DNA of 64,000 nucleotides from Candidatus Omnitrophota bacterium (GTDB taxonomy: Bacteria; Omnitrophota; Omnitrophia; Omnitrophales; JACROU01), in the NCBI GenBank assembly GCA_029261035.1, contig JAJDCD010000008.1:162313-226312 (forward strand). Reading direction: 5' to 3'. Below are positions 7,862-64,000 of this stretch, in pieces. The notes beneath the pieces are model-generated. The model had not been told where the DNA came from and did not search any database. It saw nothing but the letters and a program-made list of their open reading frames with translations. Both the position numbers and the translations under genes were made by a program. How positions within the stretch are numbered: the stretch's first letter is position 1; each line of letters opens with the position of its first letter.

Positions 7862-8869
7862 CTAACTCGTCCCCAACCTCAATAGCAACATTTCCACTGC
7901 CGCTTTAACAGATACTTTTCCTGTTTTAATTGCTGCATCTGTTTCAAAAAGAAGCTTAAAAGTTCTCTTTAACTTTTGTTCATTAAAGGAAGATAACTGT
8001 TGAACAAACCGGTTTAGAAAATAAGGTCTTATATTTAACTTTCGACCCAACTCATCTCTAGACCCTCCAGAAAGTAAGAATTTTTTACCTTCATATATCC
8101 GTTTCATCTGCCAATTCAAAAGACCTAAAAGCTCAGTGCTTTGATATGGATTTTCTTCGTAAAGATGAAAATAAATCTCAAACACCTCTGTGATATTTTT
8201 CTTAGACAAAGCCTCCGCTAGATCAAAACCTGTCGAATCATAAACCTGATCCCCCAAAGCTTCTACATGAGCCTCTGAAATAATTTCATCTGCGGGTACG
8301 TTTAAACTTAATTTTTCTAAAGTACTATTTAAAAATAATAAATTATCAGAACAGGTCTCTTCCAGAATTTTAGCTGCACCGGGACTCACTTTAAGATTCA
8401 AAGATCTAATTTTCTCACGAATAAATAATCGAATCTGCTCCTTTCGATTACTCCACCTCGACGAGCTTCCTTTATTCGGAGGCGCGTCCAGAACATTCGA
8501 CTCTCCTTTTACAGAATCAACAAAAGTATAAATCTTCTTTTTCCCTTTAACAATTTCTCCTTCTAAAAAAATAAAAGAAAAATGGGAAGGGTTTTTAAAA
8601 TATTTCTTCAACATCTCAAAATCCCCTTCTTTCATCAATTCTGCACCCTTGATCCAAATAATTTGTTTTTCTGAAAGGAAGGGGTATGTTAGAGCTTGCC
8701 TAAGAACAACTTCCCAATCTATGTCTTTCATGTAATAGAGGAAAACAGAGTCCTCTTCCCCTGATGAAAGAATTTGATGCTTCTTTTTCTGTAAACAGTT
8801 TTGAGTTAGATAAGGATCGCCTACGGCAAGGGTAAGTAAAGGAAGTGAGGTTGTACTTTTTTTAGTCAT
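7862..8869 (-). CDS. holA: DNA polymerase III delta subunit
   Basis: 335 aa. Size and C-terminal helical domain (LFETDAAIKTGKVSVKAAVEMLLLRL) fit HolA, and it sits downstream of an LptE-like lipoprotein as in the conserved lptE-holA arrangement. Confidence 0.6.
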   Translation of the reverse strand: MTKKSTTSLPLLTLAVGDPYLTQNCLQKKKHQILSSGEEDSVFLYYMKDIDWEVVLRQALTYPFLSEKQIIWIKGAELMKEGDFEMLKKYFKNPSHFSFIFLEGEIVKGKKKIYTFVDSVKGESNVLDAPPNKGSSSRWSNRKEQIRLFIREKIRSLNLKVSPGAAKILEETCSDNLLFLNSTLEKLSLNVPADEIISEAHVEALGDQVYDSTGFDLAEALSKKNITEVFEIYFHLYEENPYQSTELLGLLNWQMKRIYEGKKFLLSGGSRDELGRKLNIRPYFLNRFVQQLSSFNEQKLKRTFKLLFETDAAIKTGKVSVKAAVEMLLLRLGTS

Positions 8870-32114: not shown

Positions 32115-32202
32115 TGGTGCCGGGAGTGGGACTTGAACCCACAAGAGCTGAAAGCCCATCAGATTTTGAGTCTGACGCGTCTGCCAATTCCGCCATCCCG
32201 GC
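32115..32202 (-). tRNA. tRNA-Leu (anticodon CAA), 88 nt with a long variable arm and encoded CCA
   Basis: Hand-folded cloverleaf: acceptor GCCGGGA/TCCCGGC, anticodon stem TCAGA/TCTGA, loop CTCAAAA, T-arm GTGGG-TTCAAGT-CCCAC. Confidence 0.9.
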
Positions 32203-32255
32203 TTAAGAAGTTACGTATTATACAGGAAAGTCAAATTTTTGCTGTCAAAACTGTC

Positions 32256-32331
32256 TGGTGGACCGAAGGGGGATCGAACCCCTGACCTCCACAATGCCAT
32301 TGTGGCGCTCTCCCATCTGAGCTACCGGCCC
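32256..32331 (-). tRNA. tRNA-Ala (anticodon GGC), 76 nt, with the G3:U70 identity pair
   Basis: Hand-folded: GGGCCGG acceptor, anticodon stem CCACA/TGTGG, loop ATGGCAT, T-arm AGGGG-TTCGATC-CCCCT, CCA encoded. Confidence 0.9.
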
Positions 32332-48241: not shown

Positions 48242-51200
48242 TTAGGCTGCTATAAGGACCTTACGCATATTCTGCCATTCCTGAACAAGGTCTTGAAGAA
48301 TCTGAGGCAATAACAGTAAGGTGTTAGAATCACGGTCTCTTTGAAATAATTCCAGCAAAGCAGATCTGTTTTGAGCGACATAGAAAGAAGCTGCTAGATA
48401 AGCTCCACGATAATCAGAATCACGGCTAAATTTTTCTGCCTCAAACTGAATTCTTAAATCGCCTTCTTCCCAGTCTGCGGTGTTAAAAGAGTCATTCAAA
48501 AATACAGACTCTGCTAAATTAATTCCATTTGGAAAGTAAGGTCTTAAAAAGAACATCGATTTTTCTAAAAGGGCTTCAACATCTTTTGATAACATCTGTG
48601 TCATAGGTCGTTTCCACAAAAGAAGGGCAACCCGATAATCTTTCCAAAGACGCATCACACCTCCATACTCTCGAGCAATATCCGATATCTGATTTTTATC
48701 TGAAACTAAAAACACAACCATATTCGCTTTATTACCATCCCGCACATCCTCATCTCTTCGAGTTAACTCTTGTAATACTCCTTCTGTATTCGAATTCAAC
48801 TCCATAAAAATCGGAGTAAGATTTCTTTGCTCTTGAACAGAGTGAAGAATTACTTGAGCTTGCCCCAAACTTTGTCCTGTTGCAGCCGCTGCTTGTCCTG
48901 CATTCGAAAGCTGCCTTGAAATTTGTTGAAGCAGCATAGCCGTATGGTCTTGTGGGGTCCCAAACCCTAGAACACTCACATTCCTAAAGGAGTCAGAAGC
49001 TGTTTGAAAACGTGCGCGAACAGTACTGTTTCTTCTACCCACCAAAACATGCCGCCATCTTCCTGTTACAGCAAGAGCAAAGTTTAGATATGCTTTTTCT
49101 TCTTCTATCTTACTTGCTGCTAGAGCCGTTCGCACTTGTGTTCCTGTCATCTCTTCAGCAGCAGCATTTGCTCCGGTAATAATAAAAGAGTATCTAGCCG
49201 GAATCACTCTTCCAGACAGTTTCTCTGTCTTAAATATTTCAAGACCTCGAAACCAGTTTTTAGCGCGTAACAAACTTACTTGTTGCAAATTCTCATCAAC
49301 AATATCTCTTTCATCATTAATCCTCAAATCATAGTTAAGCGCTTTAAGAAAATGATGTTCTAAAGACATCCAAATACGAGCATCAGAAACTCCTGAGTAA
49401 TCGTTCTGATTAGAACTTCTAACTTTAGACCAAACAACTCTCATTTGTTGAAAAGCTCTTTCTGCTAATTCATTCGCTTCATTTGACCCCGTTTTATATA
49501 TATTAAAAGCCCTCTGGTCTGTTCTTAGTGCCTGTTCATCAATACTAGGAATATCAGACCACTTTGCATAAGCTTCTAACAAGTTAATATCCGCCAACAC
49601 CTTTAATGCTTGTATTTCAGCAAAACCTGCTGGGGTATTCACATCCCCCACAAATCCAATTCCACCTCTTGCTATTTGCTCACCAGACCCTGTTTTAATG
49701 ATTCTAATTTGAGCATCTGTTGCTCCCATACTTTTCATCCACTGCTCTATACGAGTTCGAGCTCCATCAAAATTATTATCCGCAGCTAAATAATACGCTT
49801 CCATAGGATAAGCTTTCTGAACCCAAGTAGATTGAGGATAAGCCGTCCTCAATGACTGCAACTCCGAAAGTGCTGTAGCATACTCACCGTTATATGCCGA
49901 TAAATGGGCTATTGCCCACAAATATTCTTGATGTTCTGCTGGAGTCAGTTGTTTGATTTCATTTTCAGTAGCTAGATTTTTAAGCGCTCTCACTTGCTCT
50001 AAATAATCATCAAGAGTTAAGTCGGATCTTAGTTTTTTCAGTAACGCTAATTTCACTTTAACGTGATAAAACCTAAGAAAAGAAAGATAAGCTCTATCTG
50101 AATGCACTGAAAAATGATTGCTAAATTGCCTATCAAAGCTTGTTAATGCATCCTTGTTAATAGAAGCATCCTCCAAGCCTTGTTTAACTAAAATCAAAAA
50201 TGAAACTAACCCTCTCAATTGTCGAACTTTTGTCTCAAGAGTTGTATCTTTTCCAATTAATTTATCTGACGCCTGATCTAACAAGTTTTTTGCATCTGCC
50301 CATTCCCCTGATTTAATTTTAACCTCAGCCTGAGCAATCAAAGCCCTACCTTCTTCAATTTGAGAGGCTCTTCTCTGTCTTTGAGCATCTAAAGCAATAC
50401 GCGCTTGATACTTCCTCCAACCTTCTGTTATCAAGTAAAACGCAGCCCCTCCAAGTAAAACAACAGACAGTAATGCCCCTAACACTAACTGCCCTCGTCT
50501 TTTTCTTAGACTTCTTTTTCTTTTATCTTTCTGCGCTTCCACATTACGATTTTCAAGAAAATTTTCAAGATCTTCTGCTAATTCAACAGCCGAAGGATAT
50601 CTACTCTCTTCACTTTTTTCCATCGTCTTAATAATTATTTCTTCTAAGTCTTTAGGTATTGCCGGGTTAATTTCACTAGGCCTTTTAAAATCATTAAGCA
50701 TAATTGCTGACATAAGCATTAAGGAAGAACTCGCAGTAAAAGGAAGCTGCCCCGTTAACATGTAATACAAAATAGCTCCTAACGCCCAAACATCGGTAGG
50801 TGCCTTTGCATCCCTAGCCAAACCCGTTGCTTGTTCTGGAGACATAAATGATGGAGTTCCTATGACAGCTCCTGTTCTTGTTAACTCCTCAGCTCTGGCC
50901 TTTGATGTCAACTTCGCCAAACCAAAATCTGTAACATAAGGAACACTCCCTTCCCCTAAAAGGATATTTTGAGGTTTTAGATCTCGATGAATAAAATCTC
51001 TTTTATGCACCCTTGCCATAGCTTCAACAATTTGTTTAAACAACACCGTTCTATCTCTAATAAGCTTCTCAGCTTCTTTTGATTTAGGTTTACTTGGAAT
51101 AATTTCCCCCTGATCTATCCACCGTCTTATTTGCTCTTCTAAATCCCCGCCCTCGACAAACTCCATAACAAAAAAGGGCTCTTCCTTGCCCTCTCTTAAT

Positions 51201-54200
51201 CGAACGTTGCCTACTGCGTAAATTTTAACAACTCCCATAAAATCTAGCTGTACCATTGATTCAGCTTCTTCTTTGAAACGTAACATTTCCTCAGCACCTG
51301 CGTGTTCAAGAAGTCGTTTTATTGCTACTTTTCTTCCTGTTTTAGATGCCCTAAAGTCCAACCCTTGGTACACAGCTCCCATACCCCCCTTAGCTAAAAA
51401 CTTCGTAATTCTAAACCTCCCTGCTTGTTGCTGATTAAATAAACGGACAAATCCATCCGTCTGCTGTAAATAAAGTGTATCTGGATCAACAGGACTCATC
51501 TTTGCCATTAACTTAGGTGAAACATCCCCAGGCTGAAGCCCTACTTGAGTTCTCCCTTCAGCAACCGTACCTCCAGACAAACTAGGAGAGACCACAGAAG
51601 TAGGCGCTCTCGCTATTACCATCCGATAGGATCTTCCATTAACATTGACATAAAAATCAGGATTCAAACCATTCGCATCCAGAACAATAAAAGGAGGATC
51701 AATGTTAGGCTTACTCCACTTCTCATTATTCTCAAAGGTCTGAAAATAGAATTGAAAAGTAGTTCCATTTAAAGGGATGGGTACAAAATATTGCGCTTGG
51801 ATGAAAGCTTGTTGAGCCTGTTGCAATAGAGAGACAACAGGACCTTTATTCAAAGCCGCATAAGCTTGACGATATTGCTCCAAGATTTCAACTGCTGTCT
51901 CAACAGGTTTATCTCCTAAACTCTGCGCTTCAACAGATCCTTCTTCTCTCCAAACTGTTAATAGATCTCCCATTAAATTCACATCATTAAATTGATCGGC
52001 AGCTTCTGCAAAAGCTGCTCCCTGAGTCGCTTTTTGCACCCAGCCTCTAAAACGTTTTACGCGCGCGGATGTTGGAATACCAGAAGTTAAATCAACTCTT
52101 CTCTGACGAATCACCCGCCCCAATAGTTGAAAGTAAGTTTTAGGATCACTCGATAACTCTTCATCTCCCTTTACCGTTCTTAACAACAATCGAATATCAG
52201 AAAGTCTTTCTTTATTTTCATCACTCAGTTGATTAAAACTACTTAACAAGCGTCCTAATTGCCGACTGGAGTTAGAAGCTATATTCGATTGCTCTCTTGC
52301 CCCATTAGACAAGTTGCCCAAATCACCCATTAAGGCCTCAATGCCGATAGAATAATCAAGCCCTGCCAAAAATGCTAAACGTAAATTTCTGATTTGAGCA
52401 GGGTTATTTGAATTTCCAGAGGATTGAATAATGGCTAAAATACTAGCCTGTAATGACTGAGAGTAATAATCTTCTATTTGTCGAGAAAGCTCCCTTTTCT
52501 TACCATACAAAGCTCCCAGTTCAGAGCTTGGATGCCCTTGTCCTGGAGTCCAACTTCCAGATCGACCATCAGGTTCTAAAATTTGTCTATAACGTCTCAT
52601 AGTAATCAACTGCTCAAGAACATATGTATCTAAAATAGCGCGTCTTAGTTTTAAACGATTCACTGGATCTGAATTTTGCAAATCAACCGCCTGTAAACCT
52701 TGACGTGCAGTTTCAAATTGAGCATTTTCCCCACCAATTGCTTTCATCAGTCTAATTCGAGCTATAAGTAAATGAGAAGAAGTCATCAAATTAGAAGATG
52801 CAAATCGAGATTGGAAATCCGACAGAGTTGTCAATGAAGCATCCAAACTTCCCATTCGATATTGGATAGTCGCTTTCTTCCAAGTATTAGCTTCATTCGT
52901 AGCATTTGCTGAATTAGAAATTTCTCGCAGAGCCAAAGCATACATATGGTTGGATAATGAAACATTGTTTTTTTCACCAGGCAACCTCAAAAGAAAACCC
53001 AGGCTTTCAAATAAACTAATTTTATCTGTGCCCGTTGTTCCTTGAAACAAATCAGAAGAAGAGAAATCTGATGATGATGGCCTGGTTGATTGAGTTAATA
53101 AAAATGATAGTCGATCAGCTATTAAACTTAACACACCTTCATTTAAACCTTTATTTAATTGAACAGACTGACTTGACTTGGATAACAAAATACGAGCAAG
53201 ACGATTAAAACGAGTTTTATCGGTATCATTTAAATCACCATATCGACTCGCAACTATATTTAAATCATTGAACGCTTGAGAAATATCGGGACTCTGTTTT
53301 TTTAACTCAGTATCTGCTGACTTAAAATTTACGCCAATTTGCTGAGTTCTTAAAGATGTGATTACTTCTTGAACCCTTGCTTTTAACGCAGCAGAAAATA
53401 GAGGCACTTCTTTAAAAGTATCTATCAAGGCTAAAATACGACTTACATCCGCAGGACGAGCAGAGTCTCCCTTTTTAATCTCTGCATCTGCTTGCTGCAA
53501 CGCCGTAACTAACTGTCTCATACTTAAAACCTTCGCATCTAACCGAGGCCTTTCTCCAGAATTAATACTTCGAGCATCATCAATTAGTTTTATTGCATCA
53601 TCATACCTTCTATCCAAAATTGCTTGTTCTGCATCATTAATATGATCTGCTTTTAACGTTAACTCTTGATTCCTTTGATAGTCCTTATACATAGAGCTCC
53701 CAATAGAAAAAGCGCCTAACATAGCTAGAGTAACAATTGCAGCTGCCAAGATTCCCGCAACAGCTTTATTTCTCTGAATTAACTTTTGTAATCGATAAAA
53801 AAGACCTTGGTTTTTAACTGCTTGAACAGGTTGGTTATTCAACCAACGGTCTAAATCGTCTGCCAACTCACTTGCAGATTGATAACGATCTGAAGGTTGC
53901 TTTTCTAATGCTTTTAAAATAATTGCTTCGATTTCTTTTGAAACCTTAGAGTTTTGACTTCGAATTGGAGTTGGATTCTGCATTGAAATAGCAGTTAAAA
54001 CAGCCGTCAATGAAGGCCCTGAAAATGGATACTCTTTGGTTAAAGACTTATAAAGCATTCCCCCTAAAGCCCAAACATCTATGCGATGATCAATTTCTGT
54101 AGATTTATTAATTTGTTCGGGAGCCATGTAAACAGGTGTTCCCAATATATCTCCTGTTCGAGTTAAAGCTTCTTCACTATTCACTAAATGCGCTAAACCG

Positions 54201-56818
54201 AAATCAGCAATCTTAGTAGAACCATCATTAGCAATAATCACATTAGCAGGTTTTAAATCACGATGGATCACCCCTGCTTTATGAGCCTTATCTAAAGATC
54301 GTGCAACATCTCTAATAATCCGAACTCTTTCTCTTAACACTTCATCTGATGTTGGAACAGGAGATTCCATAATCACATCCCTAAAATCTTCACCTTCAAC
54401 AATGTCCATTGCATAGAAAGGCCTAAGACCATATTGAGGATGTTGAACTTGTCCAATAAATCGAGATTGAACAATTCCGGGGTCATTTACTTGAGCCGCC
54501 GCTTGTGCTTCTCGTTTAAAACGAATAAACGACTCTGCATCGATAGCAGCTTCAAATGGAATCACTTTTACAGCTGATTGCCTTGGAGTTCCTGGGATTC
54601 TCAAATCCACCGCTTCATAAACAACCCCCATAGCTCCTCTTCCCAACTCTCGTATTAATCTAAACTGAGGTACCTGTTGAGAAAACAACTGAACCATCGC
54701 ATCTCCCGATGGAGGCAATTCGCTTTGATTTAAAGGAAGAGTTCCAGTTCCTTGTCTTTCTGTTCTACTTACAGAGTCTGCAGCAACCTGCACATCCGTG
54801 ATTGCCGTCAATTTAAAATGATAACCATCGATAGTCACATGATTCGTTCTAGGATCCTGTCGCAACAAAATATCTTGAACTTGCCTACCTGGTTGAATTT
54901 GAGGAGACTTCCAAGTGTTACCTTGGTAAATCTGAACAATAAAATCCATTACTTGACCTTGGAAGTTAATTCTAAACGGCTGACCTAATGGATCAATTGA
55001 TTCTCTATTTCGTCGATCTCTTACATTGCGAACCAACTCTTGCATAACCTCCATCCAAAAAGCATCTTGCATATTTTGGCCATAAGTCATGATGATTTTT
55101 TCAAACATGACATCACGAGAATCACTTTCAATGCCCAAAGATGCAGCCACAGCTTCTGGAACATCATAGTACGGCAAAGCTCCGATTTGAGTTGCCGCAG
55201 CTTCCAGCTTGAATGCAGGATCATCTAACCGAGGCTCTAATTTAACCGTTCCTGTTGCTGGATTTATAATTTGATTTAAAGACACTTCTTGCTTAGCCAA
55301 CAATTCCCAATACGGAGATGTGTCCCAATCAGGATCCGCAATCGGTGTCATCACCCAATAAGAAATATCTTTGTCTTTTAACCGCTTCGCAATCCCTTCG
55401 GTATGGAAACCACCTGCAACAACAAAAATAATTTTCTGCTTGGTGTTTTTTAATAGTTTTTCGATGTTTTGGGATAATGCTTCATCCCTTTTGTAAACAT
55501 ATTCATAATATTGAAAAGCAGAAGACATTAAAGAAATCATACGAAGCATTACAGGGTCACTTCTAAAAGTAAAACCTCGACGTTCAAATAGGTCATCTAA
55601 GGACTGCCACCAAACCTTTGTTTGGATAATATCCATACGAGACATCAGCTCTTGATAGTGCTTGTTCTCTAATTCCAAACGAGACAACTTGTCTAAAAGC
55701 ATAAAGTCTCGATCCACCTGAATCAGCATTCTTTCGTCACGAGAACGAGCTAGAAGTGGGTAAAGCTTCTTTTCTAAGCGCTCTAATTGCTCAAAAAAGT
55801 CACTCGATGCCAATACATCCATTTCTTTTTGAAACTTGATCCAACGAGCAAAAACCTTATTTTCATTTTTAAGACCTTCTGACTGTTGATTCCAAAAAGA
55901 ATTTACTCTTAGCATCCATTGAGATTCTGGTTCGTCAACACCTCTGATCATCCCCCATTCGCTCAAAAGTGCTTTAATTCGTTTTTGATCTAATTTACTC
56001 TCCTCTTGAAACAATAGAGACATTTGCTCAATTGCTGGATACAGATTTAAACTTACTCCCTTTTCTGTAGATAGTTGAATTAAAAGCCTTAGATAGACTC
56101 TTAACTGATTTACATCTTTTTCAAATTGGTCTTTAATTTGTTCTACATCTCGAAGTTGTTTGGAGTAGACTTGATTTTTAAGGCGGTTTACTTCTAATTT
56201 CGTATTTTCTATGGCTTTAACAACTGAAAACTGATGGTCTAAAAAGGAGCGATAGGCACTCACATTTTTCTGGTACAAATTCTTACTATCAATCCCCCAC
56301 AATTTAGCTTTTCGATTATTGTTTATTGCGTAATACTGGGCACCATCAATCTTGCCATCCCACATAAAAGAGTTCGTAACATCTCGGGTAATTTCCGGAA
56401 CAGGAAAAGCGGTGAAAATCAAAGGGTTAATTTCTTCCGGACCACTTCCTTCAAGACCAATCGTAATCTCTTCAGAAAGCCCCATAGAAACAAGCTTGTC
56501 TTCAAAGTAATCCAGTGTAGAAATAATATTTTGTTGGGCTTGAAAATTGGCATGAGCTTCTTGCAACAAAACCACAAGAGGATAGTCCCCTAAAGGTTTT
56601 TCTTCTGTCTCCGGAGACATCCAGAAAGATTCTCTATCGACTATCTCATTAGATAACCCACTCAAAAAAGATTGAGGAGAAACTAAAGTAGGAGCACCCA
56701 TCATCGGGTTTGCTTTTGCAGGTAAAGGTATAAATACGGAAGTAACAACAAAGCAAATCAGAACGACTAAAGATGTAAAGAATTGAAAACTCTTATGCTT
56801 CAAAATTAAAACCTCCAT
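48242..56818 (-). CDS. Giant (2858 aa) membrane protein: N-terminal hydrophobic segment, TraB/GumN-like domain, then two tandem Ser/Thr protein kinase modules, each followed by a TM segment and a long helical (TPR-like) region
   Basis: GumN/TraB motifs LVVLLQEAHAN (aa ~81-91) and IIFVVAGGFHTEGI (aa ~463-476). Kinase 1 (aa ~718-985): GRGAMGVV, AVKVI, HRDLKPANV, DFG, YMAPE, DVWALG. TM 2 (aa ~1019-1043). Kinase 2 (aa ~1801-2085): AKGGMGAV, VAIKRL, HRDLKPQN, DFG, FMSPE, DVWALG. TM 3 (aa ~2110-2130). Confidence 0.85.
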   Translation of the reverse strand: MEVLILKHKSFQFFTSLVVLICFVVTSVFIPLPAKANPMMGAPTLVSPQSFLSGLSNEIVDRESFWMSPETEEKPLGDYPLVVLLQEAHANFQAQQNIISTLDYFEDKLVSMGLSEEITIGLEGSGPEEINPLIFTAFPVPEITRDVTNSFMWDGKIDGAQYYAINNNRKAKLWGIDSKNLYQKNVSAYRSFLDHQFSVVKAIENTKLEVNRLKNQVYSKQLRDVEQIKDQFEKDVNQLRVYLRLLIQLSTEKGVSLNLYPAIEQMSLLFQEESKLDQKRIKALLSEWGMIRGVDEPESQWMLRVNSFWNQQSEGLKNENKVFARWIKFQKEMDVLASSDFFEQLERLEKKLYPLLARSRDERMLIQVDRDFMLLDKLSRLELENKHYQELMSRMDIIQTKVWWQSLDDLFERRGFTFRSDPVMLRMISLMSSAFQYYEYVYKRDEALSQNIEKLLKNTKQKIIFVVAGGFHTEGIAKRLKDKDISYWVMTPIADPDWDTSPYWELLAKQEVSLNQIINPATGTVKLEPRLDDPAFKLEAAATQIGALPYYDVPEAVAASLGIESDSRDVMFEKIIMTYGQNMQDAFWMEVMQELVRNVRDRRNRESIDPLGQPFRINFQGQVMDFIVQIYQGNTWKSPQIQPGRQVQDILLRQDPRTNHVTIDGYHFKLTAITDVQVAADSVSRTERQGTGTLPLNQSELPPSGDAMVQLFSQQVPQFRLIRELGRGAMGVVYEAVDLRIPGTPRQSAVKVIPFEAAIDAESFIRFKREAQAAAQVNDPGIVQSRFIGQVQHPQYGLRPFYAMDIVEGEDFRDVIMESPVPTSDEVLRERVRIIRDVARSLDKAHKAGVIHRDLKPANVIIANDGSTKIADFGLAHLVNSEEALTRTGDILGTPVYMAPEQINKSTEIDHRIDVWALGGMLYKSLTKEYPFSGPSLTAVLTAISMQNPTPIRSQNSKVSKEIEAIILKALEKQPSDRYQSASELADDLDRWLNNQPVQAVKNQGLFYRLQKLIQRNKAVAGILAAAIVTLAMLGAFSIGSSMYKDYQRNQELTLKADHINDAEQAILDRRYDDAIKLIDDARSINSGERPRLDAKVLSMRQLVTALQQADAEIKKGDSARPADVSRILALIDTFKEVPLFSAALKARVQEVITSLRTQQIGVNFKSADTELKKQSPDISQAFNDLNIVASRYGDLNDTDKTRFNRLARILLSKSSQSVQLNKGLNEGVLSLIADRLSFLLTQSTRPSSSDFSSSDLFQGTTGTDKISLFESLGFLLRLPGEKNNVSLSNHMYALALREISNSANATNEANTWKKATIQYRMGSLDASLTTLSDFQSRFASSNLMTSSHLLIARIRLMKAIGGENAQFETARQGLQAVDLQNSDPVNRLKLRRAILDTYVLEQLITMRRYRQILEPDGRSGSWTPGQGHPSSELGALYGKKRELSRQIEDYYSQSLQASILAIIQSSGNSNNPAQIRNLRLAFLAGLDYSIGIEALMGDLGNLSNGAREQSNIASNSSRQLGRLLSSFNQLSDENKERLSDIRLLLRTVKGDEELSSDPKTYFQLLGRVIRQRRVDLTSGIPTSARVKRFRGWVQKATQGAAFAEAADQFNDVNLMGDLLTVWREEGSVEAQSLGDKPVETAVEILEQYRQAYAALNKGPVVSLLQQAQQAFIQAQYFVPIPLNGTTFQFYFQTFENNEKWSKPNIDPPFIVLDANGLNPDFYVNVNGRSYRMVIARAPTSVVSPSLSGGTVAEGRTQVGLQPGDVSPKLMAKMSPVDPDTLYLQQTDGFVRLFNQQQAGRFRITKFLAKGGMGAVYQGLDFRASKTGRKVAIKRLLEHAGAEEMLRFKEEAESMVQLDFMGVVKIYAVGNVRLREGKEEPFFVMEFVEGGDLEEQIRRWIDQGEIIPSKPKSKEAEKLIRDRTVLFKQIVEAMARVHKRDFIHRDLKPQNILLGEGSVPYVTDFGLAKLTSKARAEELTRTGAVIGTPSFMSPEQATGLARDAKAPTDVWALGAILYYMLTGQLPFTASSSLMLMSAIMLNDFKRPSEINPAIPKDLEEIIIKTMEKSEESRYPSAVELAEDLENFLENRNVEAQKDKRKRSLRKRRGQLVLGALLSVVLLGGAAFYLITEGWRKYQARIALDAQRQRRASQIEEGRALIAQAEVKIKSGEWADAKNLLDQASDKLIGKDTTLETKVRQLRGLVSFLILVKQGLEDASINKDALTSFDRQFSNHFSVHSDRAYLSFLRFYHVKVKLALLKKLRSDLTLDDYLEQVRALKNLATENEIKQLTPAEHQEYLWAIAHLSAYNGEYATALSELQSLRTAYPQSTWVQKAYPMEAYYLAADNNFDGARTRIEQWMKSMGATDAQIRIIKTGSGEQIARGGIGFVGDVNTPAGFAEIQALKVLADINLLEAYAKWSDIPSIDEQALRTDQRAFNIYKTGSNEANELAERAFQQMRVVWSKVRSSNQNDYSGVSDARIWMSLEHHFLKALNYDLRINDERDIVDENLQQVSLLRAKNWFRGLEIFKTEKLSGRVIPARYSFIITGANAAAEEMTGTQVRTALAASKIEEEKAYLNFALAVTGRWRHVLVGRRNSTVRARFQTASDSFRNVSVLGFGTPQDHTAMLLQQISRQLSNAGQAAAATGQSLGQAQVILHSVQEQRNLTPIFMELNSNTEGVLQELTRRDEDVRDGNKANMVVFLVSDKNQISDIAREYGGVMRLWKDYRVALLLWKRPMTQMLSKDVEALLEKSMFFLRPYFPNGINLAESVFLNDSFNTADWEEGDLRIQFEAEKFSRDSDYRGAYLAASFYVAQNRSALLELFQRDRDSNTLLLLPQILQDLVQEWQNMRKVLIAA

Positions 56819-57147
56819 AACCCCTTAGATTTGAACATAATAAAGAAGTTATATTAAGTTGTAAAAAAGCTTACAAACAAAGCACTTAACGTTGTTTTCA
56901 ATATAAAAGTATAGCACAGAGGCTACTATTTACCTATGCAAGGCCCCCACAAGAAGCCTAAGTCGTTTAAATTCAATTAGATAGGGGTATATAAAATTAA
57001 CTCTTCCAGATAAACGAATTAGAAGGAAATAGGAATTAGGTTGTTGGCCCACGAACCAGACAAAACACTGCGCTATCGCTTCGTAGTCGGTACGGGGCAC
57101 ATATCCGCTAAAATTTGCATGGCTATGCCATGCTGACATGTAGTATA

Positions 57148-57224
57148 TGGCGCGCCCGAGTGGATTCGAACCACTGACCCTTTGCTTAGAAGGCAAATGC
57201 TCTATCCAACTGAGCTACGGGCGC
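57148..57224 (-). tRNA. tRNA-Arg (anticodon TCT), 77 nt, CCA encoded
   Basis: Hand-folded: acceptor GCGCCCG/CGGGCGC, anticodon stem TTTGC/GCAAA, loop CTTCTAA, T-arm AGTGG-TTCGAAT-CCACT. Confidence 0.9.
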
Positions 57225-57363: not shown

Positions 57364-58191
57364 CTAAGAAAAGTCTACCAACTTATAAATCTCAATATTT
57401 TTCATAAAAGCTTCAGACTGTGACATTGTATTATCAGAATCAGACATAATACCAATTGCTTTTAAATTTTTGGTGGGCTTTTTACCAAACAAAAACTCAT
57501 AGTCCTTACGAATATCTCTCATCTCTCTTACCCACTCTTGAGGGTCCTCAGCAGAAGACTTTTGAACAACAAACGCTTTAACACGTTTTGTATAAGGGCT
57601 AGCAGAATAAGTCCCCTCTTCAAAATGATCATCCCAAACATATTGAATAATATCAGAAGTGAAAATAGTCTTACCTTCAAATATGGCATAAATTCTTAAA
57701 GGGTAATCATTGTCTAATTTCGAAGCGAATTTTTTATTTTTCTTATTAGAAGGAAATTCGGTTACCTTCCATTTCCATACCAAAATAGGGTTCTTTTCAA
57801 TATCTATATTTACTTTTCTAAATATTCCCGAAGAGGTCCCTCGGCTTGATGATTTAAGAACATTCTCACCTGTTTCATCCGAAGAAATTTCATATAAACT
57901 CTCCCCTTTAAATTTCTGGTGTCTCCACTCCTGAATATCCTTATCTTTTAGAAATTTAAATTCAACTAACCGTTTCAACTGATCTTCTGTATAAGGAAAT
58001 TGTTCATCTGGAAGTACAATTGTTTTGCTCGGAATTAGAGTCATGAAAGAGAATGGGTCAAAGAAATAAAGGACACTCCCCACAAGTGCCATAGAACAAA
58101 TAATCACATTCAGAGCGAGAAAACGCTTCGATCTCCAAAATGGTTTTTTTTCAGACATGTAAACTAGCCTTTCCAAGAAAGAAATGAGCAA
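57364..58191 (-). CDS. Membrane-anchored hypothetical protein, possibly DUF3047-like
   Basis: 275 aa. N-terminal TM (FLALNVIICSMALVGSVLYFF), Trp-containing core (ILVWKWKVTEF) and C-terminal GIMSDSDNT. The family call is by recollection only. Confidence 0.3.
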   Translation of the reverse strand: MLISFLERLVYMSEKKPFWRSKRFLALNVIICSMALVGSVLYFFDPFSFMTLIPSKTIVLPDEQFPYTEDQLKRLVEFKFLKDKDIQEWRHQKFKGESLYEISSDETGENVLKSSSRGTSSGIFRKVNIDIEKNPILVWKWKVTEFPSNKKNKKFASKLDNDYPLRIYAIFEGKTIFTSDIIQYVWDDHFEEGTYSASPYTKRVKAFVVQKSSAEDPQEWVREMRDIRKDYEFLFGKKPTKNLKAIGIMSDSDNTMSQSEAFMKNIEIYKLVDFS

Positions 58192-58249: not shown

Positions 58250-58657
58250 CTAGACCTTCTTTGCCCTAGACGCATTATCAGGAGCATCTTTAAATCCAGA
58301 GCCTGGCGCATAGGCTACCTTTTTAAATCCATCACCATCCTTGTGGATAATGTCTTTCCAACCATTCTTCCATTCAACATAAGCTTTTGCATTTTTAAAT
58401 TCCCAGCTTCCTTCTTCTCCATTTTTCCAGTTACTAACTGCTGTGCCATCTTCCTTTAAGTTAATCAAGAAATTCTTTCCTTCAGAATCCGCAACTTCCC
58501 ACTGACCGACATACTGAACCCTCTCAACCTTCTTCTCTTTTGGATTTCCTTGCTGTTGTTGTAAAAAAATGGGATTAATAAAACCCTGAGCAAAGAGATT
58601 CGAACTTAGAAAGAATGTTATCAAGATAATTGAAGTTGAGATATTAAAAAGTTTCAT
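58250..58657 (-). CDS. Small secreted Trp/Lys-rich hypothetical protein
   Basis: 135 aa. Signal peptide, then repeated WK/WE motifs (GQWEVAD, SNWKNGEEGSWEFKNAKAYVEWKNGWKD). Confidence 0.35.
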   Translation of the reverse strand: MKLFNISTSIILITFFLSSNLFAQGFINPIFLQQQQGNPKEKKVERVQYVGQWEVADSEGKNFLINLKEDGTAVSNWKNGEEGSWEFKNAKAYVEWKNGWKDIIHKDGDGFKKVAYAPGSGFKDAPDNASRAKKV

Positions 58658-58741: not shown

Positions 58742-60061
58742 TTAAATGTTTTTCAACAAAACATTCGCTTGAGCCCCTTCAATCTGACCCCTGAAAGATT
58801 CCATACATTCCGCTATCTTATTAAACTCCTTGGATTCATGAATCGGAATCATATTATTTCCAGAGTCCTCTAAAGCATCCAAAACCTTTTTAATAGTTAA
58901 CTCCTCAATAGGAGTTGCTGGCTGATAAGCATCTTCTTTTACAACAGATGATTTAACCTCAGAAAGAACACCGGCTTCAACTAAAGAGAATAAGACTTCG
59001 CGCACTAAACGAATAGGCAGTTCAAGCTCGTGTGAAATTTGATTCGCAGTAAGAGGAGCTTCCTCATTAGCAAACCTCTTTACACACAAATGAGTAACCC
59101 ACAGAGAAACAGATTTTCTAAATGAGTGACTAACACGTCCACAGTCGGGTTCAAACTCGTAAGTTTCTTCATTTTGAATAGCAAAAGAAATTTCAGCACC
59201 TAGCAAGACAACGAGCCAACTCACTTGAAGCCAAATTAAAAACAAAGGTAAAGCTGCAAAGCTACCATAAATAGCACCATACTTAGCTGCCCCAATTTGA
59301 AAATGGATATAGCCCCACTGTACTAATTGATAAATTGTTCCAGCAACCACACCAGCAATAAAACCTGATTTGATATCAACTTTTGAATTAGGCATAAACA
59401 CATAAATAAAAGTAAACAAAATCCATAAAACACAATAAGGAACCATTTTTAAAGCAGTAAAAATAAGAGGACTAAAAAACCCTAACAAAGATATTTTTTC
59501 TGTAATCACTGTAATTTGAGAAGTAATAAACACAGTAATACTACTAGACAATATAAACAAAATAGGACAAATTAACATAAAGGATAAATAATCACTAAAC
59601 TTACGAGCTAATGTTCGCGGCGTTTTAATCCCCCATATATCATTAAAAGCATGTTCAATATTCCCCAACATCTTTACTACAGCCCAAAAAAGAAAAGCAA
59701 CACCAATTCCAGCAACCAGACCACCACTGGTATTATCTAATAACGCTTTTGAAAAATCCATAATTCGAGTAAAAGCCTCTTCTTGTCCTTGCATATTTTC
59801 CATAACCTTGTCTTCAAGCATTTTCTCAAGGCCAAATCCTTTAGCAAATCCGAATGCCATCGCAAACAAAGGAACAATAGATAAAAGGGTAAAAAAAGTT
59901 AAAGAAGAAGCCCTTAGAAAACAGTTGTCTTCTTTAAAACCTTTTATAGAAAGAATGATCATTCGAAGATAACGAATTAAAATGGATTGTTTTCTTGACA
60001 ATGATTTAGAACGAATACGCCAAATATCTGTTGTCAGAAATTGAATTAATTTTGTAACCAC
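58742..60061 (-). CDS. YihY/BrkB-family inner-membrane protein with a C-terminal winged-helix-like extension
   Basis: 439 aa. ~6 TM YihY core (LSIKGFKEDNCFLRASSLTFFTLLSIVPLFA) plus a ~130-aa soluble tail (LTANQISHELELPIRLVREVLFSLVEAGVL). Confidence 0.7.
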   Translation of the reverse strand: MVTKLIQFLTTDIWRIRSKSLSRKQSILIRYLRMIILSIKGFKEDNCFLRASSLTFFTLLSIVPLFAMAFGFAKGFGLEKMLEDKVMENMQGQEEAFTRIMDFSKALLDNTSGGLVAGIGVAFLFWAVVKMLGNIEHAFNDIWGIKTPRTLARKFSDYLSFMLICPILFILSSSITVFITSQITVITEKISLLGFFSPLIFTALKMVPYCVLWILFTFIYVFMPNSKVDIKSGFIAGVVAGTIYQLVQWGYIHFQIGAAKYGAIYGSFAALPLFLIWLQVSWLVVLLGAEISFAIQNEETYEFEPDCGRVSHSFRKSVSLWVTHLCVKRFANEEAPLTANQISHELELPIRLVREVLFSLVEAGVLSEVKSSVVKEDAYQPATPIEELTIKKVLDALEDSGNNMIPIHESKEFNKIAECMESFRGQIEGAQANVLLKNI

Positions 60062-60139: not shown

Positions 60140-60856
60140 TTAGAGGCTAAACTGCTCAAATAAATCAATCCTCTTCCCACTTTGAATTAAAGTAACGGAA
60201 AGGCCCTTAAATTCATTTTTAGCTTTTTCCAAATAACTTCGAAGACGAATAGTCTGACCCTCCATTCCGAAACGAAACACAGGATTCTGACCTAAATCAT
60301 GAAGAATAACTAACCCCGATTTCAAACCAGAACTATGGATACACTTTTTAATAAATAAATCGTATTTCTCAATCTCTTGATTGAATACTTGCACAGGTAT
60401 AGAAAAATCGATCTTCCCCCACTCTTCCTCTACGGTCTTCTTTAAAACCCCAACAATCCCACTATAACGAATCAAACACTCTTCTCCAACACCTATCTTT
60501 CGTGAATAGTTCACTATCAGTTGAGACCATTGATTCCAATCAAAATTTTGAAGTCCCGAACCCATTTCAAGAACAATAATCTCAAAGGTATAAAAACCTC
60601 TTAGCATTTGTGCTGTGGATTTCAAAGTTCTTTCTAATAAATCAGAAAAAGACTTCCACACAAAAGCTTCTTCCTTATGAATCACATTAAACACAGAAAT
60701 TGGATATGGAATGTTGTTTTTCTGAGCTTCAAAACAAAGCATCTTCGGTGATTTTATCCCTATATATTTAAGATGTTGTAATGATTTAAAATGAGAAAAC
60801 ACCCCCGATTCCTTAAAATTCTGCTCCAAAACTTCCATTACTCTACTCCATCCCAC
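60140..60856 (-). CDS. Hypothetical 238-aa soluble protein, translationally coupled to the upstream helicase
   Basis: Its start overlaps the helicase stop by 19 bp. No recognisable motif. Confidence 0.4.
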   Translation of the reverse strand: MGWSRVMEVLEQNFKESGVFSHFKSLQHLKYIGIKSPKMLCFEAQKNNIPYPISVFNVIHKEEAFVWKSFSDLLERTLKSTAQMLRGFYTFEIIVLEMGSGLQNFDWNQWSQLIVNYSRKIGVGEECLIRYSGIVGVLKKTVEEEWGKIDFSIPVQVFNQEIEKYDLFIKKCIHSSGLKSGLVILHDLGQNPVFRFGMEGQTIRLRSYLEKAKNEFKGLSVTLIQSGKRIDLFEQFSL

Positions 60857-62772
60857 GAACTTTTATAAGCTCCTATAGACTCTACATACTTCAACCATTT
60901 CTTATAAAAAGGTAAACTAGACAAAGTAGCGCTATCTCCAATCACAATAAGTTTTCTTTTAGCCCGAGTTAAGGCTACATTCATACGCCGTGTATCAACC
61001 AAAAAACCCAACTCCCCTTCTGTGTTCGAACGTACCAACGAAATAATCACAACTTCTTTTTCTCTTCCTTGAAAACCATCAATACTATTCACTTCTATCT
61101 TTCTATTATCTATTTGTCTAGCAATAAACTTAACTTGTGCTCGATAAGGACTTATAACACAAACATCCTCTGGGAGAACCCCCGCGTCTAATAACTTTTT
61201 TAATTCCTGAGTCACTAACTGTGCTTCCTCTGGATTATAGCGACTCTCACTCCCCTTTTTCCTTTGTTCTTCAAAGCCTCTTCCAGCTGTGTCTATAAAC
61301 AAAACAGGAGCATCATCTCCTTCATCCTTGAATTGAACTCCTTTTAAATCACTCAAAACATGACTCGCAACAGATTTATCCGCAATCAATTTATTTTCAT
61401 AAAATTCTTGAGATGAAAAGTTCATAATTTTTTCATTCATACGGTACTGAACACGCAAAGTGGTTTTGTGATCTTCGTCTAACTTCTCTATAAAGCGCTC
61501 GAATAAACTTACATTCAAACCGCCTTTTTTCGCTTCGTCTGAAAAAACCGTTGGATGTAATTGTTTATGATCTCCTGCAAGAACCATCTTGTCTGCAAAC
61601 AAAAAAGGCACCCAGCTAAAAGGCTCTATCCCCTGAGTTGCTTCATCAATAATTACATAATCAAAAATTTGACTCTTTAAGAAAGGATCTAAAGACGTAA
61701 GGTGCGTTCCTAAATAGACGGAACCCCCATGCATAAGCTGTTCTTTGACATTTTTCTTCAATTCCTTAATCTGATTTCGCATAAACTTCATTTCATCTCG
61801 GGTTTGATTCCACTCACCCTTTCCAATCCATGTTCGTTCCTGCCTACGAGAACGCTTCTTATCTTTCAAATGAATTTCAGACTCATATTGATCAATAATT
61901 TCTGAATACGGATGATTTGCCAGTTGATAGTCAAGAGTGTATTCATGTAAATGTCTCATGATACGAGCAGGGTGCCCCAAACGAATACAAGGCACTTTTT
62001 CACGAACCAGACGTTCTAATAATTGATCACATGCCGTATTACTCGGCGTCGTAACAAATACAGACTTACCCTCTTTTTGAACCTGTCGAATTATTTCAAC
62101 AAGGACTGTCGATTTGCCCGTTCCAGGAGGTCCATGAATCAAAGAGATATCTTTTGAGGCAAGAGTTTTCTGAACTGCTTCTTGTTGCCATTGATTTAAA
62201 TCTGAATTCAGAAAAGAGATGTCCTTTAGAGCTAAAGAGCTAACTGCATTGCTTTTCTTTACTCCAAAACTCAAATCACGATAAAAAGCTAAACGATCAT
62301 TTTCTGCTGTAGCAACATTTCCCAAAGTATCTAGAACTCTTCGATAGCTAGAGCGCCCACTCGCAATATTAAGATGAAACACGCCGCCCTCAACAAGCCA
62401 ATCAGGCAAACGCCGATTAAAAGCTAGAACGATTTCTTCTTTATTTTTTTCGTAAACAGTACCGGAGGGGACTCCAAACAAATCATCTGCACTTTCGGAA
62501 ACACTAACAATATCACCTACATCTAGAGAAAATAAAGGCAGGTCTTTACCTTGACTAGAGACAAAGCTAACAAGTTGATGGTCCGAAGGAGAAAAGTGAA
62601 ATTGAATAGCTCGCATATTAAAAAGAGCTTTTCCAGTCTCTTGTCTTTGCGCAGGAGAAAGCCTAAGGAAAAACTCCTGATAACGCTCACTCTCAGCCTT
62701 CTCTTCAATCTCAAGTAGCTTCTTCAAATTAGAAAAATGCTTATCAATAGCTTTGCTCATTATAGTTTCCAT
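60838..62772 (-). CDS. Upf1-family superfamily-1B helicase, IGHMBP2/Smubp-2-like
   Basis: 644 aa. Walker A [23 protein letters not shown]; motif II [86 protein letters not shown]. The ~190-aa N-terminal domain parallels the human IGHMBP2 N-terminus (GDIVSV...[32 protein letters not shown] vs [26 protein letters not shown]). Confidence 0.8.
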   Translation of the reverse strand: [644 protein letters not shown]

Positions 62773-62842
62773 TATCTACGAAAAGCGTGTTCCTAATTTA
62801 AAAGAAAAAAGGTCTTTACCAAATAGTATAACCCTACACTCT

Positions 62843-64000
62843 TTAAGATTTTAATTCCTGAGAAACTTCCTCAATAGCTTTCTTAGCATCGCTATAAAAA
62901 AGATAAGTCTTATCATCCTCAAATAATGGATTCTTAATCCCAGCAAATCCAGGACTTAAACTTCTTTTGATTACAACAACACTCTTAGCCTTATCCACAT
63001 TCAAAATAGGCATTCCGTAAATAGGACTACCCTTCTCATTTCGAGCAACTGGATTAGTCACATCATTAGCCCCAATAACTAGAGCTACATCAGCTTGATC
63101 AAATTCAGAATTAATCTGATCCATTTCGTATAATTTATCATAAGGAACATCCGCTTCTGCAAGCAACACATTCATATGTCCCGGCATTCTTCCCGCAACA
63201 GGATGAATCGCATACTTCACAACAACCCCTTTATCTTCTAATATTTTTTCTAATTCACGAACAGCATGCTGAGCACGCGCCACAGCCATCCCATACCCAG
63301 GAACAATCACAACCAGCTGAGCTCCATCCATCATCATCGCTACTTCTTCTGCCCCACAACTCTTTACCTGAGTGTACTCTTGATCTTTCTTTTCCGCAGA
63401 TGGATCAACCTTACCAAAAGTTCCAAAGGCTACATTCGTCAATGAGCGATTCATGGCTTTACACATAATCTGAGTTAAGATAAGTCCAGCAGCTCCAACT
63501 AAGGACCCTGCTACAATAAGAACATTATTCATTAACACAAATCCTGTCATGGCAGCAGCAACTCCTGAATAAGAATTTAAAAGAGAAATCACAACAGGCA
63601 TGTCCGCCCCACCAATCGGCAGCACAAGTAAAATACCCAATAAAGCAGAAAGCCCTGCAACAACCCAATAAAGATTCAAATTCGTTGGAGATATAGAAAT
63701 CCAAACACTTAAAACAACAATCGCTATAAAAATAAGTAGATTAAGAGTTTTCTGAAGAACATAAGTAATGGGTTGTTGCTTAACAAGGCTTTGTAATTTA
63801 CCAAAAGCAATTAGACTTCCTGTAAACGTGAGTATTCCAATGAAAGTACTAATCACAACCGAAACTAATACAAAGGTTCCTGTAGATGGCCAAGTTCTCA
63901 AAAGCTCTGAACAAGCAACTAAAGAAGAAGCTAATCCGCCAAAACCATTAAATAGAGCAACCAACTGAGGCATTGCAGTCATTTGAACCAAACTAGCAAA
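62843..64000 (-). CDS. pntB: NAD(P) transhydrogenase beta subunit; the N-terminus lies beyond the window end
   Basis: TM region (PQLVALFNGFGGLAS...) followed by the C-terminal NADP(H)-binding domain (GYGMAVARAQH, IGANDVTNP). Confidence 0.8.
   Translation of the reverse strand, partial: FASLVQMTAMPQLVALFNGFGGLASSLVACSELLRTWPSTGTFVLVSVVISTFIGILTFTGSLIAFGKLQSLVKQQPITYVLQKTLNLLIFIAIVVLSVWISISPTNLNLYWVVAGLSALLGILLVLPIGGADMPVVISLLNSYSGVAAAMTGFVLMNNVLIVAGSLVGAAGLILTQIMCKAMNRSLTNVAFGTFGKVDPSAEKKDQEYTQVKSCGAEEVAMMMDGAQLVVIVPGYGMAVARAQHAVRELEKILEDKGVVVKYAIHPVAGRMPGHMNVLLAEADVPYDKLYEMDQINSEFDQADVALVIGANDVTNPVARNEKGSPIYGMPILNVDKAKSVVVIKRSLSPGFAGIKNPLFEDDKTYLFYSDAKKAIEEVSQELKS

Follow-up and report, generated by a model that had tools for sequence, protein, structure and literature searches.

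The closest described relatives of the helicase studied here are human IGHMBP2 (SMUBP-2; PDB 4B3F/4B3G), a protein that carries an R3H domain and an AN1 zinc finger, and, at the level of the RecA core, Upf1, Sen1 and Dna2. Upf1 has an N-terminal CH (zinc-knuckle) domain that binds Upf2. An Upf1-like helicase core is also present in the Mokosh systems, of which type I consists of MkoA and MkoB and type II of MkoC, with a PLD nuclease either adjacent or fused. The 'IGHMBP2 family helicase' model of NCBIfam, TIGR00376, is dedicated to prokaryotic annotation and graded as a 'hypothetical equivalog'; searching the literature under the names of bacterial IGHMBP2-family helicases found nothing specific to the family. 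Here we analyse one such helicase gene, together with the adjoining gene (hereafter the partner), in a 64,000-nucleotide stretch of genome (the window) from Omnitrophota, a phylum for which we know of no cultured representatives. We favour, with a probability of roughly 60%, the reading that these are two genuine genes which do not form a dedicated system and whose adjacency is what remains of an old neighbourhood of genes in Omnitrophota.

Results

The helicase resembles the human IGHMBP2 core along its whole length

Both open reading frames reported by the first-pass annotation were recovered on the minus strand, one of 644 amino acids at 60838..62772 and one of 238 amino acids at 60140..60856. 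The former encodes an IGHMBP2-family SF1B helicase core. The whole protein scored 523 bits against TIGR00376 (cutoff 348.9) and matched AAA_11 and AAA_12 in a Pfam scan. The full set of Upf1-like SF1B motifs that had been claimed for it (I, Ia, II, III, IV, V and VI) is intact in the translation and in the alignment with 4b3g, including LNQWQQEAV (Q-like), GPPGTGKST (I) and VIIDEATQ (II). The best PDB match was human SMUBP-2, residues 3-638 of IGHMBP2 in 4b3g being collinear with residues 8-640 of the helicase (E 1e-107). Two RecA domains are present, and the reported likeness to the human N-terminus was borne out by the collinearity of helicase residues 8-190 with the 1B/1C region, for which the Pfam model SMUBP-2_HCS1_1B stayed sub-threshold (24 bits vs 27). 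The 1B/1C region and all SF1B motifs are thus common to both proteins, but the bacterial one ends at residue 644 and gave no Pfam match to the R3H domain or the AN1 zinc finger.

Upf1 (E 5e-56), Dna2 (E 3e-61) and Sen1 (E 6e-38) have the RecA core in common with the helicase. However, Upf1 aligns with it only from query residue 190 or later, and no CH zinc-knuckle domain was found by Pfam; the Dna2 match covers the core from residue 355 only, and the Dna2 nuclease domain is missing. RecD-type models scored far under their cutoffs (RecD2, 43 bits vs 500; RecD, 28 vs 310). The placement of the protein with IGHMBP2/Upf1 rather than with RecD/Dna2 therefore holds. The same annotation had called the family unusual in bacteria, which is contradicted by the existence of a dedicated prokaryotic model and by the spread of relatives. 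Pattern scans found these in Halanaerobiales and, at 31-55% identity, in Omnitrophota, Bacteroidota, Thermodesulfobacteriota, Campylobacterota and archaea. Judged by its sequence, the helicase is an ordinary prokaryotic TIGR00376 member with nothing exotic about it. By homology to human IGHMBP2, it would move 5'->3' on single-stranded RNA or DNA at the expense of ATP and would separate duplexes or displace bound proteins as part of some housekeeping process on nucleic acids.

The partner belongs to an unannotated protein family

The 238-residue version of the partner, which overlaps the helicase gene by 19 nt, is the longest open reading frame and starts at GTG 60856. A start at ATG 60838 is most likely (feature 60140..60838, minus strand), because this ATG has GGAG upstream, the form in public databases (P0001) has 232 amino acids and M1 of the shorter form aligns with M1 of family members. 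The reading frame previously described is real, but the protein is probably one of about 232 residues and the overlap one of 1 nt.

No model in Pfam, NCBIfam, PADLOC or PHROG matched the partner, and its earlier description as a protein without recognisable motif is correct for curated libraries. It is not an orphan, however. Word-index searches returned only 2 proteins with the partner as query and 5 with the partner alignment, and HMMER was needed to reveal the family: an exhaustive search yielded 121 representatives, 66 of them with E below 1e-30. The members, of about 235 amino acids, have so far been seen in Omnitrophota and in one Verrucomicrobiae-labelled MAG. They are unnamed (for example MCB9800264.1 and MDP3920732.1, each a 'hypothetical protein' of Candidatus Omnitrophota) and are homologous to the partner over the full length at 20-41% identity. 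Unlike the partner, most of them adjoin unrelated genes; only the window's lineage and that of loci L047 and L049 have a family member near the helicase. Common to the family are the motifs I..EE...W.S, NHxRKL..GE, EDWGKI(D/E)F and DLSxxPxFxFGxExQTxRL, and the conserved positions of the partner are glycine, tryptophan and charged residues, among others (E56/E57, W61, G81, N110, K134, W140-G141-K142, D160, D181 and Q195). No Cys or His is conserved. A Pfam scan of all 69 aligned members gave scattered matches only, all with E above 0.005. One 475-residue member, P0091, was considered as a fusion and set aside, as its N-terminus, in which no domain was recognised, resembles a miscalled open reading frame.

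Structure prediction, which had been proposed as a check, was unusable with two sequences alone (pLDDT 43). With the 69-sequence alignment, AF2 produced a confident model (pLDDT 95.1, pTM 0.90), but Foldseek found zero matches to it in PDB or BFVD, and a sequence-profile search of PDB with the partner alignment A2 likewise found nothing. The DSSP pattern of the model hints at two beta3-alpha-beta units; an internal duplication was rejected at the sequence level, where hhalign found none. No signal peptide or transmembrane segment was detected in the sequence, and the model is that of a compact, predicted cytosolic alpha/beta protein. Because Gly, Trp and charged residues are conserved and Cys and His are not, we would guess, as a weak inference, at a binding or regulatory role rather than that of a metal-dependent nuclease.

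The two genes are probably coupled in this genome

At the junction (60836..60849, minus strand), the sequence GGAG at 60849-60846 is followed by a 7-nt spacer and the partner ATG at 60838-60836, which shares its A with the helicase stop codon TAA (60840-60838) to give TAATG. The earlier claim of translational coupling is plausible on these features, and in this genome the helicase and the partner probably share a transcript and are probably coupled in translation. The junction showed no unusual RNA structure (z = -0.76). All 48 open reading frames of at least 90 amino acids in the crude gene list of the window lie on the minus strand, and, with the longest reading frames taken, 13 of the 47 neighbouring pairs overlap or abut; close spacing and overlapping stop and start codons are usual in this compact region, where one strand carries the genes. 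The gap between pntB and the helicase gene contains a weak sigma-70-like match, TTAAAA-18-TATACT (62825..62854, minus strand), which agrees with the consensus only; since the region has fewer such sites than expected (12 vs 16.5), the match carries no weight alone.

The form of the junction is not conserved across lineages. The two genes overlap or abut in locus L041, as they do in the window, but are separated in L034 by a 146-nt spacer with a palindrome of 40-nt arms, which is absent from the window, and in L047 and L049 by another gene. The palindromic spacer of L034 splits the pair, which indicates that translational coupling is dispensable.

Housekeeping genes flank the pair

Upstream of the helicase lies PntB, the NAD(P) transhydrogenase beta subunit (62843..63991, minus strand), which is cut by the window edge and shares 82% identity with its L034 counterpart in the same position. 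Downstream of the partner, and on the same strand, are a YihY/BrkB-family membrane protein with a C-terminal extension (58742..60061; Pfam Virul_fac_BrkB, E 1.8e-59), a small protein of no known family with an N-terminal signal-peptide-like segment (p135; 58250..58657) and a DUF3047 protein (57364..58191), the last gene of a block syntenic with L034 and L041. The YihY/BrkB gene follows the partner in both of these loci and is kept there in the clade of the window only. After the helicase and the partner, the p135 protein is the third component to recur in the neighbourhood, and in L047 and L049 its domain occurs in tandem in a two-domain protein (X) situated between the partner and the helicase.

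These flanks bear directly on the proposal that the pair is a two-gene anti-phage or RNA-surveillance system, a helicase plus effector in the manner of Mokosh. Pairs of a helicase and an unknown protein are a common defence architecture, and the helicase core is homologous to those of the PADLOC profiles MkoA (E 1.5e-90) and MkoC. The match, however, is the generic one of an Upf1-like core: it is confined to positions 608-1081 of the 1112 in the MkoA profile, and the first ~600 positions are unmatched. The partner has no PADLOC match and no PLD-type or other nuclease signature, and the window provides neither a PLD nuclease partner nor a defence-island context. The NCBIfam anti-phage models scored far under their cutoffs (PLuB, 225 vs 999; ProA, 48 vs 1500; Hhe, 36 vs 2000). 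PntB, YihY and DUF3047 belong to a housekeeping block that keeps its synteny across relatives (63-82% identity), and neither an integrase nor any other defence gene lies in the neighbourhood of the pair. GC content is ordinary, without a composition anomaly, and the plasmid and phage collections held no partner homologue. A defence system of this kind is thus highly improbable, and the anti-phage architecture suggested by the first-pass annotation is not upheld.

Helicase and partner are linked in two lineages and separate in most loci

The gene pair had been taken for an obligate module, an idea that the wider genomic record does not sustain. No partner-family gene was present within about 5-6 kb of any of the 28 GTDB helicase loci, and 19 of the 21 metagenome helicase loci have no partner nearby, the remaining two having one. 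Overall, some 44 of the approximately 49 helicase loci surveyed lack linkage, which is to say that the partner is largely absent beside orthologous helicases. The unlinked loci include L048, whose helicase is sister to that of L047 and L049 (85% bootstrap), and L063, where the helicase shares 66% identity with the window protein over the C-terminus and the next gene encodes a small unrelated protein. The open reading frames that follow the helicase genes of L003 and L005 were tried as divergent partners and rejected, as they form a secreted family of their own. In the Omnitrophota genome GCA_030698625.1, the helicase and the partner reside on separate contigs (JAUYMS010000026.1 and JAUYMS010000038.1, respectively).

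Viewed from the partner, within a small, non-random sample of 14 loci on short contigs, the helicase is at most one gene away in five loci, belonging to two of ten partner lineages and arranged in two gene orders. The other nine have unrelated neighbours: an MFS transporter and an epimerase, FIST, ABM and STAS, an aminotransferase and CBS, AhpC and GT4, GGDEF, a methyltransferase and LMF1, or an uncharacterised gene. Lineage A (the window, L034 and L041) has the order PntB-helicase-partner-BrkB-p135-DUF3047, and lineage B (L047 and L049) the order HI0933-like flavoprotein-partner-X-helicase; the helicase clades of the two are not sisters. Five loci in 14 is nonetheless far above the ~0.1-0.2% for a random gene pair, an expectation that is a rough estimate and was not computed. 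In comparative genomics, families that stay together in different gene orders are usually read as functionally linked, and chance adjacency would rarely bring helicase, partner and p135 together in two orders with different flanks. What exists is a looser, clade-limited association of helicase and partner, and it is real.

Discussion

Linkage that is occasional and found only in some related genomes argues for an old neighbourhood and against an obligate two-gene or anti-phage system. The ancestral Omnitrophota neighbourhood would have comprised the helicase, the partner and a small secreted p135-domain protein; it would later have been kept in some lineages, reordered, and dissolved in most.

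The same association could reflect a clade-specific partnership, in which the partner serves the Omnitrophota IGHMBP2-type helicase as an accessory subunit, loader or regulator and is encoded nearby or elsewhere in the genome. Repeated proximity under two gene orders, in helicase clades that are not sisters, speaks for it, as does the stop/start overlap or abutment in the window and L041, and the presence of both genes, unlinked, in GCA_030698625.1 is compatible with action in trans. On the other hand, no partner-family member turned up in Bacteroidota, archaea, Thermodesulfobacteriota or Campylobacterota, all of which have the helicase; the majority of partner loci show no linkage, and not one of the 121 family representatives is fused to a helicase. 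A palindromic insertion separates the pair in L034, and between the same genomes the partner is only 33-41% identical vs about 64-65% for the helicase, evolving much faster. In lineage B, moreover, the protein between the two genes is a secreted one that recurs as often as the helicase itself, which is hard to square with a cytosolic helicase complex. We consider such a partnership unlikely, at something like one chance in a few. The narrower version, in which the partner is a lineage-specific accessory factor born in an ancestral Omnitrophota operon of partner, p135 and helicase and acting in trans where separated, is slightly more doubtful still.

The recurrence of p135 raises another alternative, namely that the functional unit is the partner with the secreted p135-domain protein (and YihY/BrkB in the clade of the window), related to envelope or transport, and that the helicase is a bystander in the transcription unit. 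The p135 domain accompanies the partner in exactly the five loci in which the helicase does, and it follows the partner immediately in lineage B, with BrkB between the two in lineage A. The other eight partner lineages, however, themselves a small sample, yielded no p135-domain gene, and a partner without signal peptide or transmembrane segment is not an obvious envelope component. This arrangement is improbable, well behind a helicase partnership though ahead of defence.

With the old-neighbourhood reading preferred, the finding is at present of minor importance: the helicase adds one more routine case to a modelled family, and the supposed module is not obligate. What is new is an unannotated family of ~235-residue proteins with a high-confidence predicted structure, for which Foldseek detected no structural relative; the family could reasonably be proposed as a new Pfam entry, and its fold may be new as well. 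The recurrent Omnitrophota neighbours also offer a first, weak lead to the role of prokaryotic IGHMBP2-family helicases. If the partner did prove to be an accessory factor, it would be the first cofactor of the bacterial IGHMBP2-like helicases and would provide the first functional handle on them.

A widespread prokaryotic IGHMBP2-type helicase

The 644-aa ORF at 60838..62772 on the minus strand encodes a helicase matching Pfam AAA_11 and AAA_12, with the SMUBP-2/HCS1 1B domain slightly below the Pfam threshold (24 bits versus 27). It scored 523 bits against the NCBIfam model TIGR00376 'IGHMBP2 family helicase' (cutoff 348.9) and stayed well under the cutoffs of the RecD, RecD2 and named anti-phage helicase models of that collection. 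The top PDB match was the human SMUBP-2 (IGHMBP2) core (E 1e-107), whose chain residues 3-638 align collinearly with helicase residues 8-640. In contrast, alignment to the helicase starts only at residue 190 for Upf1 and at residue 355 for Dna2. The complete set of SF1B motifs is intact. Human IGHMBP2 has R3H and AN1 domains, whereas Pfam matched neither in the window helicase. The TIGR00376 score and the PDB ranking confirm the IGHMBP2/Upf1-type identification made in the first-pass annotation.

Relatives with 31-55% identity occur in Omnitrophota, Bacteroidota, Thermodesulfobacteriota, Campylobacterota, Halanaerobiales and archaea, and group in phylum-consistent clades in a neighbour-joining tree. 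The helicase therefore belongs to a known family widespread in prokaryotes and is not the eukaryote-like oddity, unusual in bacteria, that had been supposed. No literature naming a prokaryotic IGHMBP2-type family was found. The exact 644-aa sequence is missing from the protein collection, in which the downstream partner is present; the public helicase annotation probably uses another start, such as the second Met of METIM.

The partner gene and its start

The gene directly downstream, here termed the partner, reads as 238 aa in its longest form (60140..60856, minus strand), which opens at the earliest available start codon, a GTG. At the junction (...GGAGTAGAGTAATGGAA...), the helicase stop TAA (60840-60838) shares one base with an ATG (60838-60836), 7 nt upstream of which lies a GGAG. 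Public databases carry the partner as a 232-aa form from this ATG (P0001), and its residue 1 aligns with residue 1 of the homologues. The partner is therefore most likely a 232-aa protein with a 1-nt TAATG overlap; both ORFs of the originally proposed pair exist, but the 19-nt overlap and the 238-aa length are artefacts of choosing the longest ORF. Within the window, 13 of 47 adjacent pairs overlap or abut (crude list of 48 ORFs of at least 90 aa), and a stop/start overlap by itself is weak evidence there. GC content and skew at the locus are nothing out of the ordinary.

An unannotated protein family

The partner had zero matches in Pfam, NCBIfam, PADLOC and PHROGs, and a word-index search returned only itself and one protein at 36% identity. 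Exhaustive HMMER searching with a two-sequence profile built from these two proteins recovered 121 cluster representatives, with E below 1e-30 for 66. Nearly every one has a single domain and a length of 225-250 aa; the few source names read 'hypothetical protein' from Candidatus Omnitrophota, with one MAG labelled Verrucomicrobiae. In the 69-sequence family alignment, G81 is invariant and E56/E57, W61, F99, N110, G118, Y125, K134, W140-G141-K142, D160, K164, D181, P186, Q195 and R198 are strongly conserved, and no Cys or His is conserved. No internal repeat was detected in the partner sequence, no informative fusion of the family with another domain was seen, and no homologue was found in plasmid and phage collections. 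The family appears to be mainly one of Omnitrophota, with a confidently predicted and possibly new fold.

Linkage between helicase and partner

The first-pass annotation had proposed an obligate two-gene module. Profile searches of six-frame translations (--max) found no partner-family gene within ~6 kb at any of 28 GTDB helicase loci, including Omnitrophota ones at 48-53% identity, and tblastn agreed; the neighbours there encode ProRS, Pol IV, trehalose synthase, an ECF sigma factor, a HAD hydrolase and an MFS transporter. At metagenome helicase loci, the partner was present in 2 of 21 (L047 and L049), upstream of the helicase. In GCA_030698625.1 the helicase lies on JAUYMS010000026.1 and the partner on JAUYMS010000038.1, so the two co-occur in the genome but are unlinked. 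These results do not support an obligate module. At another locus (L063), an unrelated small protein follows a helicase whose C-terminus is 66% identical to that of the window helicase. Uncharacterised ORFs downstream of the helicases at two Omnitrophota-type loci, L003 (titled only 'uncultured bacterium') and L005, are not divergent partners. Those ORFs (L003 8073-8822, L005 8446-9093) encode a conserved secreted Gly/Pro-rich protein with DxDxDG-like stretches, 42% identical between the loci and matching no Pfam family.

From the partner side, 14 loci represent ten independent lineages. Three loci place the partner beside an IGHMBP2-type helicase: the window, L034 (41% identity between the partners) and L041 (36%). 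They share a block of PntB, helicase, partner, YihY/BrkB, p135 (a small protein with a signal-peptide-like N-terminus) and DUF3047. Between the window and L034, identity is 82% for PntB, 73% for BrkB, 65% for the helicase, 55% for DUF3047, 41% for the partner and 38% for p135; the last two are the fastest-evolving genes of the block, and the two genomes are related. In L034, 146 nt separate helicase and partner, so translational coupling is dispensable. This gap is filled by a 117-nt imperfect palindrome (7871-7987) with 40-nt arms 80% complementary (TTGTCATTGCGAGG...CTCGCAATGACAA), which resembles a small repeat element that has been inserted and is absent from the window. The other sampled partner lineages have unrelated neighbours: MFS transporter and epimerase; FIST; ABM and STAS; class V aminotransferase and CBS; AhpC and GT4 glycosyltransferase; GGDEF; methyltransferase and LMF1-like protein; or an uncharacterised gene. 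One such context recurs at two loci (L001 8519-11562 and the contig of family member P0003), the partner lying between an MFS transporter and a ~280-aa gene, in L001 an NAD-dependent epimerase.

The shared block also bears on an anti-phage role, which the first-pass annotation had raised and which we consider very improbable. The PADLOC match to MkoA, the Mokosh defence helicase model, covers the shared helicase core only (608-1081 of the 1112 profile positions), the partner has neither a match nor a nuclease signature, and the flanks (PntB, YihY, DUF3047) form a syntenic block without mobile-element or defence genes.

A three-gene neighbourhood, probably old and dispersed

L047 and L049 carry, tightly packed, an HI0933-like flavoprotein, the partner, a signal-peptide-bearing protein X of 244-248 aa, and the helicase. 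X (L047 4230-4964, L049 1653-2399) is a tandem duplication of the domain present as a single copy in the 135-aa p135 ORF of the window (58250-58657, minus strand) and its counterparts in L034 (10259-10663) and L041 (2726-3166). This secreted, unannotated domain spans ~100 aa and contains motifs including Y.G.W and W.NGW.D. Every examined locus that carries it also has helicase and partner linked. All-against-all comparison of neighbours in the ten partner lineages showed that, among helicase-holding partner loci, the recurrent neighbours are the helicase and the p135 domain alone, together and in two lineages only; other shared neighbours were limited to two pairs of unlinked partner loci. In the helicase tree, L047/L049 have the unlinked L048 as their sister (85% bootstrap) and the window's lineage branches apart. 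The trio thus most plausibly descends from an old gene neighbourhood of Omnitrophota that has been reordered and, across most lineages, has broken up: above chance, below a module.

Persistence of the trio through rearrangement would suit a clade-limited functional partnership of helicase and partner. We regard this as rather unlikely, since the helicase is widespread in phyla where no partner turned up, helicase-partner fusions are absent, an insertion separates the pair in L034, and the equally recurrent third gene encodes a secreted protein. We favour, at a probability of roughly 60%, a housekeeping helicase, by homology an SF1B 5'->3' enzyme, that would be co-transcribed with an unrelated cytosolic partner, itself probably binding or regulating; their adjacency would reflect gene order inherited in a compact genome.

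Other features of the window

The crude gene list (1-64000; ORFs of at least 90 aa) has all of its 48 entries on the minus strand, an extreme one-strand orientation over 64 kb, and every 2-kb bin shows negative GC skew. A giant 2858-aa ORF (48242-56818, minus strand) has a signal or transmembrane-like segment at its N-terminus and includes two Ser/Thr protein kinase domains (~residues 720-981 and 1804-2082); much of the remaining sequence matched nothing in Pfam at E <= 1e-4. Titles of published papers point to very long proteins as a known Omnitrophota trait. A tRNA-Arg(TCT) (57148-57224, minus strand) lies between the DUF3047 and giant kinase genes, overlapped by a probably spurious 88-aa ORF (56930-57196); a tRNA-Leu(CAA) and tRNA-Ala(GGC) pair occupies 32115-32331 (minus strand). 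The YihY/BrkB membrane protein (58742-60061, minus strand) has a C-terminal extension (~residues 332-412) with weak winged-helix-like TrmB/Rrf2 matches and resembles the NCBIfam 'ribonuclease BN/unknown domain fusion protein', scoring under the model cutoff.

Significance

The remaining interest of the locus lies in the partner, whose unannotated family, largely from Omnitrophota, has a confidently predicted fold that may be new. The neighbourhood also offers a faint clue to the role of bacterial IGHMBP2-type helicases.
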